From: a virus
Taxonomy: Duplodnaviria; Heunggongvirae; Uroviricota; Caudoviricetes
Direction: 5' to 3' (one strand)
DNA: 3,611 nt
Virus record (IMG/VR): IMGVR_UViG_2541047440_000020
In this document: one piece after another, positions 1 through 3,000 of the stretch
How the letters are laid out: every line of letters starts with the position of its first letter
Position numbering within the stretch: the stretch's first letter is position 1
Position numbers: made by a program

Positions 1-3000
1 CGGCATTCGCTCACTACAGCTTATCCAACCATCCGGAGTTACCGGATAGTTGGTTGACGTTTCCGAGATTTCCCGAAAATTATTGGTTGACGAACCCTTA
101 TTTTCCCGAAAGTTTCCAGCCTGAAGCATGGCGGCGCGGTGACACCAGATAATCCAGCCAAGCGCCATATCCCATACCATGTAATCTCTATCGCCATTTT
201 TTGCTCTGCGGCGATCTACAGATTCTCCGAAACGCTTCTCCATAAATAATTCATAGGCTGCTCGTTCATCCGATACTGCTGCCAGTGATGCCAGCGCAAT
301 CCGTGCCAGCTCTTCCGCTTCTTCTGCTGGAAGCACAACGTTGCTACCCGGTCCGTATGTTTCGCGCCAATGCTGGATTGTCAGCAGTCGATCTTTGGTA
401 ATAGTGGTCATAGCTATTTCACCTTAATCTCAACATTTCGCAGCTTTAGCTCTACTGGCATGTCTGACTTTCCTGTTAATGCTAATGCGAGATTTTCTGG
501 AGTAATGAGAGCAGTTATTGTTTTCCCCATCGCCAGACGAATAATCATTCGTATTTCGCGATCGTCACATGCTCCTGGTCGAACAATTGATATTTGTCCG
601 TTCATCTCACTCTCCTTTGATGCGAATGCCAGCGACGCGTAATGCGTGTTCTAGGTCAATCAGGTAAAGCCAACTGCCATTTTCTTTAGGTATCATGACA
701 TGTCGCTCATCTGCATTTATCGGGTGTCCATATCGAAGGTCGTAGCGAGTCGGTAATTGAACTTCCCGCGCTTCCAGTTCAGCAATACGCTTGCTCCCAT
801 CAGAGATAACGCCTTCGTAATACTCACGCTGCTCGTTGAGTTGTGATTTTGCTTCTTCCAGTCCATCCAGCAAATCAGCGATAATATCCGCTTCCCGATG
901 ACGGATGTGACGCTTAAACGCAGCAAGAGCCGCATCACAATCCCGTTCAGCATTTGGGCTGTCCGGGGTAGCCTGATACCACGCCAGCGTCGATTGATAG
1001 TTTTGTGCTGCCTCACGCAGTGCCTGATAGTCAATCTTGCCCACTGGCTGCCTCCTTTGCCGGGATTTCTAACTTTTGAGTGGTTGTATCAAATTCAAAC
1101 AACTTAACCACGTCATCAAACAGGACATAATCACCATCAGGATCTTCAGTCATATCAGCGCCACAATCCTGACCGCACGAGTCGCAACCTCCCATATCAA
1201 GCTCGTATCGCTTCAGGTTCGCGATATTTGATAAATTCAGCGCCAGTATAGCCAGATCATTAACCTCGTCTGCGATATACCCTGCACCATGTCCATACAT
1301 TTCAATGCGGGATATGATTTCTTCTACACGTTGTTTTGTGATCGTCATTTTTCTCTTCACTCCGATATACAAGGATTACTACACCCCCTCTGCTGATTGC
1401 GCGAGCTGGATCCCCTGGTTCCATGCCGTCAATTCCGAAGGCTTCGAAAAATGCATCTATTGCCTTTTGGCGTTGCTCCTGCTTACGGCGTTTATTCCAT
1501 TTTTTCATGAACAACAGTGACAGCCATCGTCCGCTGCAGAACATGATGTAGAAATAACCAAGGAGCGCTAGGCCGGTGTTCAGGGCTGTATCGATCGTTA
1601 TCGTGGTGTTGATGTTCACTTCACACCTCTCTGTTTGTTGATAAGTTCAATATCCTGCTGGCAACTGGCGCAAGCTCTGCATCCACGAACAGCCAGGCGT
1701 CGCCGCTCATCTATCGGATCGCCACACTCGCAACAATGAGTAGCAGATGGGGCATTACTATCGGATTTGTATTTTTGCAGGGAGAGATTGCGCTGCAATT
1801 CTTCGATTTCAGCGGCGTTGTCGATGATATCTGCCATTTTCCTTTCCTTCAGGCATGAAAAAAGGAGCCGAAGCTCCTTTGGTTTTAGAATTCGAATTGC
1901 CTTGCCCGCAGGCTTTTCAGCATTGGTCTGGCCCGCTGAACTACGAAACTCGACTGGTCAAGCCGTGCCGCCTCTCTCAGTAGCACATCTCTGTTCTTCG
2001 TCACCATGTAGATGGTCTCAAACGCAATGTCATACAGCTTGTTCGTGTATGAGGAGTTCAGCTCTTTCATGATCGGATACAGGTGTTTGCTGAGGTCCTG
2101 GGCTTTTTCCATCCAGAGTTGCATGTAGCAGAGGAGGATGATTTCCTCGTCTGTGAATTGTTGCTGTGGTTCTGCTTGTGCCGACTGCATGTTGCGAAGT
2201 TTCTTTTCGCACTCGATGAAGTATCTGCGTATCTGTCGGCCTTTTTCGTTACGCTCTACCATCGCCGTTTCTTTGGCTGTATCGAGGGTAAGGTGGTAGT
2301 CTTTTTTCCCTCGCCCATAACCTATTTCCCGTTTCTGGGAAATAGCTATATAGTCCTGATTTTCAACGAATCCGTACTCTTCAATACGTTCTGTAATCCA
2401 CGATGCAAAGCGTTTACCTACTCCAAGAAAAGTATGTAAATCACGGGCATTAACGAGAAGAGTGGTTTCGTTGGCGATAGTGCCGTTGAATACGGGGATG
2501 CGTTGACTGGTCATGATGACCTCCTTATTTGTTTAGTTTATAACCGCCAGTTAGTAGCTGGCGGTCGGGTGTCAACTGAGCCAAATAAGAAGCTCTGGGC
2601 ATATTCCCCTTGCGGGTGTTGTATTACGCCTCTCCACCCGACCTTTGTACGGATGTAACTATGCCAAATTGCAGGCATAAAAAAGCCGCAAAGCTATCGG
2701 GTGCGGAGACCGCTTATTTGTTCAGTGCGGTCAGTATGCGATAGCTCTGGAGGATTTGTCAATCAGCGGAATATTGATGAACGGGTAACGGTAAATGCCT
2801 CATCCAGAAAATTAACGCAAATTCGCATCGCAAACTTGCGTTAATTATCTGAAATATCAAGTTAAATCCCCTTAAATGTTTGGGGCACTATTGGGGCAAA
2901 ATGTGGTTGTTTGGGGCACTATTGGGGCAAAATGTGGTTGTTTGGGGCATATTTGGGGCAAAAAAGAACGTATAAAGAACGGTGTAAAATTGATTTCTTC

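Follow-up and report, generated by a model that had tools for sequence, protein, structure and literature searches.

A UUCG-loop hairpin as the probable minus-strand terminator and 3′ boundary of a mobile antirepressor cassette in a Stx prophage

The window analyzed here is a 3,611-nt stretch of DNA from a virus of the Caudoviricetes (IMG/VR record IMGVR_UViG_2541047440_000020), and it represents the attR end of a Stx prophage of the 933W/Sp5 type. The ant gene (1885..2514, minus strand) encodes a protein of 209 aa with an AntA N-terminal domain and a P22_AR_C C-terminal domain, and corresponds to ECs1251 and to ST933Wp80 of 933W. Downstream of ant, on the same strand, lies a gene for a TraR/DksA-type zinc-finger protein of 73 aa (1616..1837), which is 71% identical to phage lambda Orf73. 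This gene, hereafter traR, is a paralog of lambda orf73 and belongs to the TraR family. Lambda Orf73 binds RNA polymerase and slows the growth of the host. DUF4752 and Ea22-like genes are found further downstream of traR, and the neighboring genes are all encoded on the minus strand. The literature on ECs1250 and ECs1251 contained no transcription findings. A paper on phi24B ant probably concerns a different ant gene, whose C-terminus is 82% identical to P22 Ant (vs 32% for the gene in the window), and it mentions no terminator. A preprint on Pas sRNA showed no link to this locus, and the work of Lemire et al. had no bearing on 933W ant.

The preliminary description placed a UUCG hairpin with a U run between ant and traR, at 1858-1883 and within 27 nt. 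Direct reading of the minus strand confirms this element, and the 27 nt are made up of a linker, the hairpin and the U run. The ant stop codon UAA (1887..1885) is followed by the 4-nt linker AACC (1884..1881) and then by the hairpin (1861..1880), which consists of a 5′ arm AAAGGAGC (1880..1873), the loop UUCG (1872..1869) and a 3′ arm GCUCCUUU (1868..1861). The stem comprises eight perfect pairs, four of which are G-C, and the calculated folding energy of the hairpin alone is -10.9 kcal/mol. UUU (1860..1858) follows the 3′ arm, and CAUGCCUGAAGGAAAGGAAAAUG leads from there to the AUG of traR at 1837; the traR Shine-Dalgarno sequence is AAGGAAAGGA (1849..1840). Because three U residues overlap the base of the stem, the U tract is six residues long (1863..1858) before CAUG begins, and three of the six can pair with upstream A residues. 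Thus, a G-C-containing stem-loop with a U-rich tract immediately 3′ of it, as in an intrinsic terminator, lies in the sense orientation within a string of genes on one strand.

How readily such a site arises by chance was estimated with a scan for perfect stems of at least 7 bp with at least four G-C pairs, a loop of 3-8 nt and at least five T in 7 nt. On both strands of the window, the hairpin at 1880..1858 was the sole qualifying site, and any qualifying site appeared in 4.3% of 300 dinucleotide shuffles (2 × 3.6 kb). A promoter/terminator consensus scan of the window did not list this hairpin among its terminators, apparently because the stem was extended into the U tract and too few trailing T were left to count. 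The folding energy of the 66-nt surroundings was not unusual (z = -0.72). Therefore, the significance of the hairpin rests on its architecture, position and conservation rather than on its energy. On the minus strand, a d'Aubenton-Carafa-type score was +15.2 or +9.1 when the 5- or 6-bp G-C core was taken as the stem, and -14.8 when the full 8-bp stem was used. Since the G-C core is short (5 bp with four G-C pairs) and three residues of the U6 tract are pairable, the intrinsic efficiency of termination may be modest.

Upstream of ant, a promoter-like site on the minus strand (2733..2762) consists of TTGACA, an 18-nt spacer and CATACT; these are 10/12 consensus matches only, and the site is likely the start of an ant cassette. 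A leader RNA of the sRNA-Xcc1 family (Rfam RF02221) is encoded at 2555..2643 on the minus strand and scores 69.1 bits against a gathering score of 53. The ribosome-binding region of ant (ACAAAUAAG, 2532..2524) and an upstream copy of that sequence (2721..2713) are both complementary to the second loop of this RNA (CUUAUUUG, 2589..2582). The leader RNA loop and the ant ribosome-binding site co-vary in more than ten versions, as in P1 c4. The Rfam C4 covariance model gave no match at E ≤ 10, and the leader matched sRNA-Xcc1 only; it may work like c4, although it falls outside Rfam C4 by model match. A weak hairpin with U6 is also present between the promoter-like site and the leader RNA (2706..2679).

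Published RNA data appear to cover this region. In EDL933 without induction, the minus-strand sRNA-Xcc1 locus lying about 2.4 kb from sokW showed an RPKM of 25,609, the fourth highest among 115 ncRNAs (PMC5331693). In the Sakai strain, Hfq crosslinks RNA of the ECs1251-ycdG intergenic region (PMC4104026). EcOnc31 (Tree et al.) falls on the window at about 2853-2929 or about 3026-3102, the position being ambiguous between genome versions. The published EDL933 and Hfq coordinates are consistent with the window locus, at less than base-by-base mapping. The ant cassette appears, from its promoter-like site, to have its own promoter. Given such a promoter and a leader RNA that is apparently abundant in the uninduced lysogen, the main job of the hairpin is probably to end the cassette transcript.

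Conservation of the hairpin was examined with a degenerate pattern for the 3′ coding end of ant, which, applied to viral contigs, yielded 113 sites as an unbiased sample. The identical sequence AAAGGAGCTTCGGCTCCTTTTTT follows ant in 113/113 sites, so that the 23 nt of hairpin and U run are invariant. The linker before the hairpin varies (AACC, AACT, TACC, TATC or TCATC, 4-5 nt), and at least six different sequences begin directly past the T run. The next gene on the same strand also differs: a TraR-like gene at 20 nt, NinB at 27 nt, an excisionase gene at 56-57 nt, a 55-aa ORF at 15 nt, or a 5′-truncated TraR gene followed by a PAPS-reductase-like gene. TraR is downstream in only about one-quarter of the 113 ant 3′ ends, and in the rest ninB, xis or other genes are found; these positions are sites in lambdoid early operons. 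Because the hairpin is invariant and both of its flanks are variable, it moves with ant and not with TraR. The preliminary description had treated the hairpin as a feature of the ant/TraR junction. It is indeed located there, but it is not specific to that junction, for it closes without variation a mobile ant cassette that precedes at least five different genes.

The other boundaries of the homologous block are equally discrete. Between contexts, homology of the cassette breaks immediately past the U run (1858), and on the upstream side it ends at 2166, the start of the ant C-terminal domain (38 cases), at 2536-2540 (14 cases), at 2645-2647, the 5′ end of the leader RNA (15 cases), or exactly at 2762, in the -35 hexamer of the promoter-like site (29 cases). 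One unit therefore occurs in several contexts with sharp boundaries (2762, ~2646, ~2538, 2166 and 1858), as is expected of a moron. Judged by these features, the ant unit is a moron-like cassette composed of a putative promoter, leader RNA, ant and a predicted terminator. The hairpin 22-mer was also found in at least 51 unrelated flank contexts of other phages, often no more than 8 nt from a stop codon, and this recurrence would fit a generic, convergently reused terminator. More distant relatives of Ant (among them those of P22 and a Hafnia phage) are followed at the same place by different hairpins with T runs. The perfect invariance of the hairpin could partly reflect the recent spread of one cassette and not selection, because no compensatory substitutions were found in the hairpin among the 113 copies.

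We consider it probable that the hairpin is a Rho-independent terminator on the minus strand and closes a small autonomous ant cassette at its 3′ boundary; most likely it is a transcription stop signal of the ordinary kind, and as such routine and not a novel type of element. Termination at the hairpin, its efficiency, its N sensitivity and its gating by ant translation are all properties that we infer from sequence. The cassette would be ordered as promoter-like site (2762..2733), leader RNA (2643..2555), ant (2514..1885) and terminator (1880..1858). In the prophage, the hairpin would end or strongly attenuate transcripts from the cassette's own promoter, and constitutive transcription of the cassette would thus be kept out of the TraR/Orf73-like, DUF4752 and Ea22-like genes.

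How the downstream genes might be transcribed was considered from the surrounding map. As the preliminary description had noted, no convincing promoter separates ant from traR: within 450 nt upstream of traR, including the ant-traR gap, we found no sigma-70-like site better than 8/12. Therefore, the downstream genes are reached by read-through or by antiterminated transcription, and the earlier proposal to this effect is upheld by the lack of an intervening promoter and by the location of these genes on the same strand as the N-dependent early-left operon. Residual read-through at the hairpin would be one route. It would be expected to be high when ribosomes translating ant stop only 4 nt from the stem and block folding of the 5′ arm. 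At lambda tR2, placing the stop codon 5 bp upstream cut termination from about 90% to less than 10%, and removal of translation restored it (PMC4824070). The other route would be terminator-resistant RNA polymerase, modified by N, which would travel from PL through xis, int and attP on the circular genome. In the 933W map, the minus strand carries int and xis through exo, ending at the attL core, and it likewise carries ant, the hairpin and traR, starting at the attR core; in the vegetative genome, the hairpin is accordingly downstream of PL on the transcribed strand. After circularization, the N-dependent early-left operon would run on through ant and the hairpin into traR.

Termination is not the only possible use of a stable hairpin with a UUCG tetraloop that is placed right at the 3′ end of ant. 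It might mainly serve RNA stability or processing, as a barrier to 3′ exonucleases that protects cleaved ant mRNA, and the levels of ant and downstream mRNAs would then be set without much transcription termination. The short and partly sequestered U tract agrees with this idea, as does the stop codon 4 nt upstream, which should suppress termination whenever ant is translated. However, an exonuclease barrier alone needs no U tract, whereas the U run varies no more than the stem does (113/113) and homology breaks only past it. Moreover, the 22-mer including the T run recurs after stop codons in at least 51 unrelated phage contexts, and an annotated terminator of the same design follows ant in P22. 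We therefore regard a predominant stability function as improbable, while noting that stability and termination are not mutually exclusive roles. The mosaic junctions located exactly at the 3′ edge of the hairpin could also mean that it has no transcriptional function and spreads with the ant C-terminal domain, either as a palindrome that hitch-hikes or as a favored joint for recombination. With no compensatory changes in the family, selection on pairing can only be presumed. Nevertheless, this explanation is very unlikely, given the canonical terminator design in the sense orientation after a stop codon, the recurrence of identical hairpins in unrelated phages and the distinct T-run hairpins that occupy this place in the distant Ant relatives; junctions at terminators are, besides, what the moron model predicts.

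Linkage to ant also bears on whether the hairpin belongs to the TraR/orf73 module instead, as a homolog of the exo-xis terminator t2 of lambda carried along by duplication of an orf73-like gene. Among 80 TraR-homolog loci, 53 (and lambda) have GGAGCU-ACA-GGCUCC-U6 upstream and 27 have the hairpin of the window, and GGAGC/GCUCC with U6 is common to both elements. On the other hand, the hairpin follows ant in every one of the 113 sites and TraR comes next in only about a quarter of them; the flanks, the loop and the spacing to the AUG (20 vs 58 nt) are unrelated to those of t2, and the GGAGC...GCTCC-T6 motif occurs too commonly among phages to show homology. The linkage of the hairpin to ant thus largely refutes this origin, to which we assign a minimal probability. 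We think it just as implausible that the hairpin acts on the plus strand, or on both strands, against antisense transcription from the late-gene side. The preliminary description had read it as a plus-strand terminator as well, and the stem is indeed a perfect palindrome followed by UUUGGUUUU on that strand. This claim is not supported: the plus-strand d'Aubenton-Carafa-type scores are negative (-11.6 and -47.4), and what would have to serve as the U tract is the variable linker, which is often not T-rich and reads GATGA or GATA in many cassettes. Furthermore, every neighboring gene is on the minus strand, and Q-modified late transcription, which in lambda ignores terminators of this kind, would ignore this one too.

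The pairing and co-variation of the leader RNA loop with the ant ribosome-binding site, together with a stop codon 4-5 nt from the stem in every cassette, suggest a further, tentative and rather unlikely reading, in which the terminator is the translation-gated output stage of a c4-like antisense switch. When ant translation is blocked, the hairpin would fold and terminate transcription, and the mRNA would be exposed to Rho. When ant is translated, the hairpin would be suppressed and polymerase would enter the TraR/Orf73-like host-reprogramming genes. If this were true, one RNA would control both the antirepressor and the downstream operon via translation-gated intrinsic termination, and its specificity variants would act like heteroimmune immI types.

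Reading the hairpin as the probable terminator of the ant cassette is of value for the annotation of Stx prophages and for the reading of their transcriptomes; a Term-seq data set exists for the Sakai strain (PMC7547250). The hairpin marks the expected end of the ant cassette transcript that is apparently expressed in the lysogen. It is implied that a TraR/Orf73-like RNA-polymerase-binding protein and its neighbors would be insulated in the lysogen, and that only read-through or, once the prophage has excised, N-dependent transcription would turn these genes on. The locus also illustrates cleanly a mosaic joint that coincides exactly with a probable terminator. Of more use as a lead is the leader RNA, whose family is known only as 'sRNA-Xcc1' and which co-varies strongly with the ant ribosome-binding site; by analogy, this co-variation suggests a P1-c4-like immunity layer in Shiga-toxin phages.

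A close known counterpart is in P22, where a terminator is annotated between ant and the tailspike gene 9 on the same strand (NC_002371, 16012-16035). It also follows a P22_AR_C antirepressor gene and also has a short G-C stem, a UUCG loop and a U run (CCCAGC-UUCG-GCUGGG-U7), and its inner stem and loop, AGC-UUCG-GCU, are identical to those of the window. In contrast, its outer stem pairs are flipped relative to GGAGC/GCUCC of the window, it lies at a distance of 18 nt, not 4 nt, from the ant stop codon, and it has U7 rather than U6. The settings differ also: P22 ant is in immI with Mnt, Arc and sar, whereas the ant gene of the window is att-proximal with an Xcc1-type leader RNA. By these comparisons, the two terminators may be either homologous or convergent.

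Lambda provides further comparisons. Its hairpin before orf73 lies at 30669-30690, outside the segment 31088-33241, carried by plasmid pKD46, in which we presume tL3 to be located; identity with tL3 was thus rejected. A scan of viral contigs for GGAGC-N3-6-GCTCCTTTTTT was likewise set aside as a guide to homology, since the pattern is far too common to inform. Within lambda's and phi24B's exo-xis region, a terminator t2 (GGAGCU-ACA-GGCUCC-U6) is predicted between orf61 and orf73, and lower mRNA levels have been found downstream of it in lambda (Bloch et al. 2014, PMC4195576). Both t2 and the hairpin of the window are hairpins with U6 upstream of an Orf73/TraR-family gene in an N-dependent early operon, but t2 has an ACA loop, unrelated flanks and 58 nt to the AUG instead of 20 nt; only GGAGC/GCUCC and U6 are shared, with neither homology beyond the stem nor linkage to orf73. 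The hairpin also occupies positions equivalent to those of the N-sensitive terminators of lambda (tR2 before ninB, and the tL terminators): in other phages the ant-cassette hairpin lies 27 nt ahead of ninB or 56 nt ahead of xis, and in the 933W map it shares the strand of PL transcription across att.

At the level of the whole cassette, the nearest concept is the moron, which Juhala and Hendrix are said to have described as a promoter-gene-terminator insertion in lambdoid phages. The ant cassette resembles morons in its promoter-like 5′ edge, its predicted terminator at the 3′ edge, its several places of insertion and its apparent transcription in the lysogen; it differs in that its cargo is a regulatory antirepressor with an antisense-type leader RNA, not a lysogenic-conversion gene, and in that its promoter is a putative one. 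Morons of lambdoid phages are also mentioned in the Hfq crosslinking study (PMC4104026). For the leader RNA, the comparison is with c4, the antisense RNA that controls icd/ant in the immI region of P1 and P7. The leader of the window belongs to Rfam sRNA-Xcc1, not to C4, and lacks an icd-like leader ORF; in P1, the block on downstream expression is Rho-dependent. Both systems nevertheless place a structured RNA upstream of ant in the same transcript, with a loop complementary to the downstream ribosome-binding region and to an upstream copy of it, and in both the specificity of the variants co-varies.

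The window corresponds, by sequence match, to the right (attR) end of 933W/Sp5-type Shiga-toxin prophages in wrbA; the host gene ymdF comes after this prophage end. Over nucleotides 1345-3611, identity to E. coli O157:H7 Sakai, related strains and phage VT2-Sakai is 99.7-99.8%. All phage genes in the window are on the minus strand. They are ant (2514..1885; AntA and P22_AR_C domains; ECs1251), a TraR/DksA-type zinc-finger gene (1837..1616; ECs1250), a DUF4752 gene (1619..1302), the start of which overlaps the 3′ end of the zinc-finger gene, and then Ea22-like and other small genes. 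The leftmost 1.3 kb (1-1345; DUF551-like, Ea22-like and small ORFs) is not Sakai/933W sequence. It resembles, at about 94% identity, the wrbA prophage remnant of strain OkiPb01680, in which this string of genes is joined with int and xis. The alignments point to a mosaic or deletion junction near position 1345. Just inside attR, at about 2876-2960 (plus strand), there are tandem 31-bp repeats rich in TTGGGGCA, of which the window has one copy more than Sakai (a 31-bp alignment difference). A role as integrase arm-type sites is plausible for these repeats. EcOnc31, an RNA bound by Hfq (Tree et al. 2014), may be located here; its coordinates vary with genome version.

The preliminary description had placed a UUCG hairpin with a U-run between the ant stop codon and the zinc-finger gene, and this was confirmed. 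On the minus strand, the ant stop codon UAA (1887..1885) is followed by the linker AACC, the stem-loop AAAGGAGC-UUCG-GCUCCUUU (1880..1861), UUU (1860..1858) and CAUGCCUGAAGGAAAGGAAAAUG; traR starts at 1837. The stem has eight perfect pairs, four of them G-C (dG -10.9 kcal/mol), and the U run has six residues, three of which can pair with upstream A residues. In our own scan, this was the sole perfect hairpin with a T run in the window, and only 4.3% of dinucleotide shuffles held any such site. The folding z-score of the region is ordinary. The d'Aubenton-Carafa-type score on the minus strand was +15.2 and +9.1 with a 5- or 6-bp G-C core. By these features the hairpin resembles a moderate terminator that would work only in the sense of the genes. 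A plus-strand terminator, as had also been proposed, was not borne out: that strand has a negative score, and what would serve as its U tract is the variable linker. The hairpin is without annotation in the 933W and Sakai records. A standard promoter/terminator scan of the window did not report it, apparently because the stem was extended into the U tract.

We surveyed 80 TraR-homolog loci in viral contigs. The exact window hairpin was present in 27; in the other 53 (about 74% protein identity) another hairpin, GGAGCU-ACA-GGCUCC-U6, stands about 58 nt 5′ of the start. Phage lambda itself belongs to the latter class, and the zinc-finger gene of the window is a paralog of lambda orf73 (71% identical). 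The lambda hairpin (30669-30690) lies between orf61 and orf73, and in lambda/phi24B it has been predicted as the terminator t2 (Bloch et al. 2014, PMC4195576). Both orf73 and this hairpin are unannotated in the lambda RefSeq (NC_001416; 30395-30839) and in J02459. The survey and the t2 parallel at first suggested that the hairpin is part of a TraR module. However, examination of ant 3′ ends contradicted this. The 3′ coding end of ant was searched for with a degenerate pattern that does not presuppose the hairpin; this gave 113 sites, and identical AAAGGAGCTTCGGCTCCTTTTTT was found 3′ of ant in all of them. The linker between the ant stop and the hairpin is variable (4-5 nt: AACC, AACT, TACC, TATC or TCATC), and at least six unrelated sequence classes follow right after the T run. 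On the same strand, the first gene past the hairpin is variously TraR-like (at 20 nt), NinB (at 27 nt), a lambda-type excisionase (at 56-57 nt), a 55-aa ORF (at 15 nt), or TraR without its start codon and ribosome-binding site, which stands ahead of a PAPS-reductase-like gene. Because the hairpin is invariant while linker and downstream genes vary, we conclude that it is the 3′ end of ant. Mosaic joints fall precisely where its U run ends. Six viral contigs (L280, L316 and four related loci) have the hairpin and then TraR lacking the Shine-Dalgarno, start codon and first codons, with the junction …TTTTTT(C/T)AT(G/A)CCTGAACGACAACGCCGCTGAAATCGAAGAG…; the truncation is a deletion with its end a few bases past the terminator.

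At least 120 viral stretches contain the exact 22-mer AAGGAGCTTCGGCTCCTTTTTT; half of these belong to unrelated phages and have neither ant nor TraR nearby. The 22-mer has at least 51 distinct unrelated flank contexts, in environmental and jumbo-phage contigs. It is often within 8 nt of a stop codon, and the preceding stop often overlaps or abuts the stem. This distribution is best read as one UUCG terminator reused convergently. Homology with lambda t2 was rejected, because the hairpin goes with ant and its stem motif occurs too widely to show homology. A palindrome without function is unlikely, since the motif recurs convergently after stop codons. The preliminary description had offered a processing or stability element as an alternative; in its pure form this is unlikely, because the U run is conserved as much as the stem. 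No compensatory changes were found among the 113 copies; selection on pairing is therefore inferred from a hairpin that stays constant between variable flanks, and not from covariation.

Cassette boundaries were taken as the points where upstream homology between ant-cassette copies and the window stops sharply: 2166 (start of the P22_AR_C domain), 2536-2540 (just 5′ of the ant ribosome-binding site), 2645-2647 (the 5′ limit of an RNA element) and 2762. The last is the first base of a promoter-like TTGACA-18-CATACT site (2733-2762, minus strand) found by promoter scan; in 29 ant cassettes from other contexts, homology ends exactly at this first base of the -35 hexamer. The RNA element (2555-2643, minus strand), between this site and ant, is a full-length match to Rfam sRNA-Xcc1 (RF02221; 69 bits versus a gathering score of 53). 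As judged from sequence, promoter-like site, leader RNA, ant and hairpin have the layout of a moron. A weak terminator-like element (2679-2706, minus strand; CCGCA, 11-nt loop, UGCGG, then C and U6) sits between the promoter-like site and the Xcc1-type RNA, and other cassette types have a similar GCGGCTTTTTTATG stretch.

In the Xcc1-type RNA, the second loop, CUUAUUUG (2589..2582), shows complementarity to ACAAAUAAG (2532..2524), a 9-mer that extends into the ant Shine-Dalgarno and is repeated upstream at 2721..2713. A comparison of 46 distinct cassette leaders gave at least 13 versions in which loop and pre-Shine-Dalgarno stretch have changed together; in 10 versions the upstream copy follows these changes. 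Mean duplex energy is stronger for cognate (-13.0 kcal/mol) than for non-cognate (-9.6 kcal/mol) combinations. Phages P1 and P7 control ant by antisense RNA (c4-ant). The leader did not match the Rfam C4 model; its logic resembles c4-ant in that the loop is complementary to the ant ribosome-binding region and loop and targets co-vary.

Lysogens appear to transcribe the ant cassette. The sRNA-Xcc1 locus of uninduced EDL933, on the minus strand about 2.4 kb from sokW, ranks 4 of 115 ncRNAs by RPKM with almost no ribosome footprints (PMC5331693), and the Sakai intergenic regions that rank highest for Hfq binding include the ECs1251-ycdG spacer (PMC4104026). In line with the preliminary description, the promoter scan gave no usable promoter between ant and traR; the genes downstream of the hairpin lie close together. 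The N-dependent early-left operon of 933W (ssb ... exo ... xis, int) shares its strand with ant and traR and ends at attL. After circularisation, early-left transcription would continue into ant, the hairpin and traR. In the best-supported reading, the hairpin would terminate or attenuate the cassette's own transcript and insulate the TraR/Orf73-like and following genes in the lysogen; N-modified, terminator-resistant polymerase would express them in lytic growth, and residual read-through would be a second route. This largely agrees with the earlier proposal of read-through or antitermination. Experiments on lambda tR2 showed that termination falls from about 90% to below 10% when a stop codon stands 5 bp upstream, and recovers when translation is removed (PMC4824070). 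Here, with 4 nt between the ant stop and the stem, read-through probably depends on whether ant is translated. A link from leader RNA to hairpin is speculative, and would run only through such translation gating.

In lambda, mRNA of orf73, ea22 and ea8.5 is lower than that of upstream genes (Bloch et al. 2014, PMC4195576). Orf73 slows the growth of the host; it binds to RNA polymerase and is an inhibitor of rRNA promoters. The exo-xis TraR copy of 933W is in an unannotated gap (4876-5193); thus 933W and Sp5 have two TraR/Orf73 paralogs. Neither a terminator within a lambdoid early operon nor a moron made up of promoter, gene and terminator is more than a textbook feature. Of the more distant relatives of Ant, one in a Hafnia phage likewise has a hairpin and U run 3′ of its gene; in Salmonella phage SPN3UB the hairpin at this place lacks a good U run. 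P22, the Ant of which is homologous in the C-terminal domain (32% identity), has an annotated terminator directly after ant and before gene 9, CCCAGC-UUCG-GCUGGG-U7, 18 nt from the ant stop.
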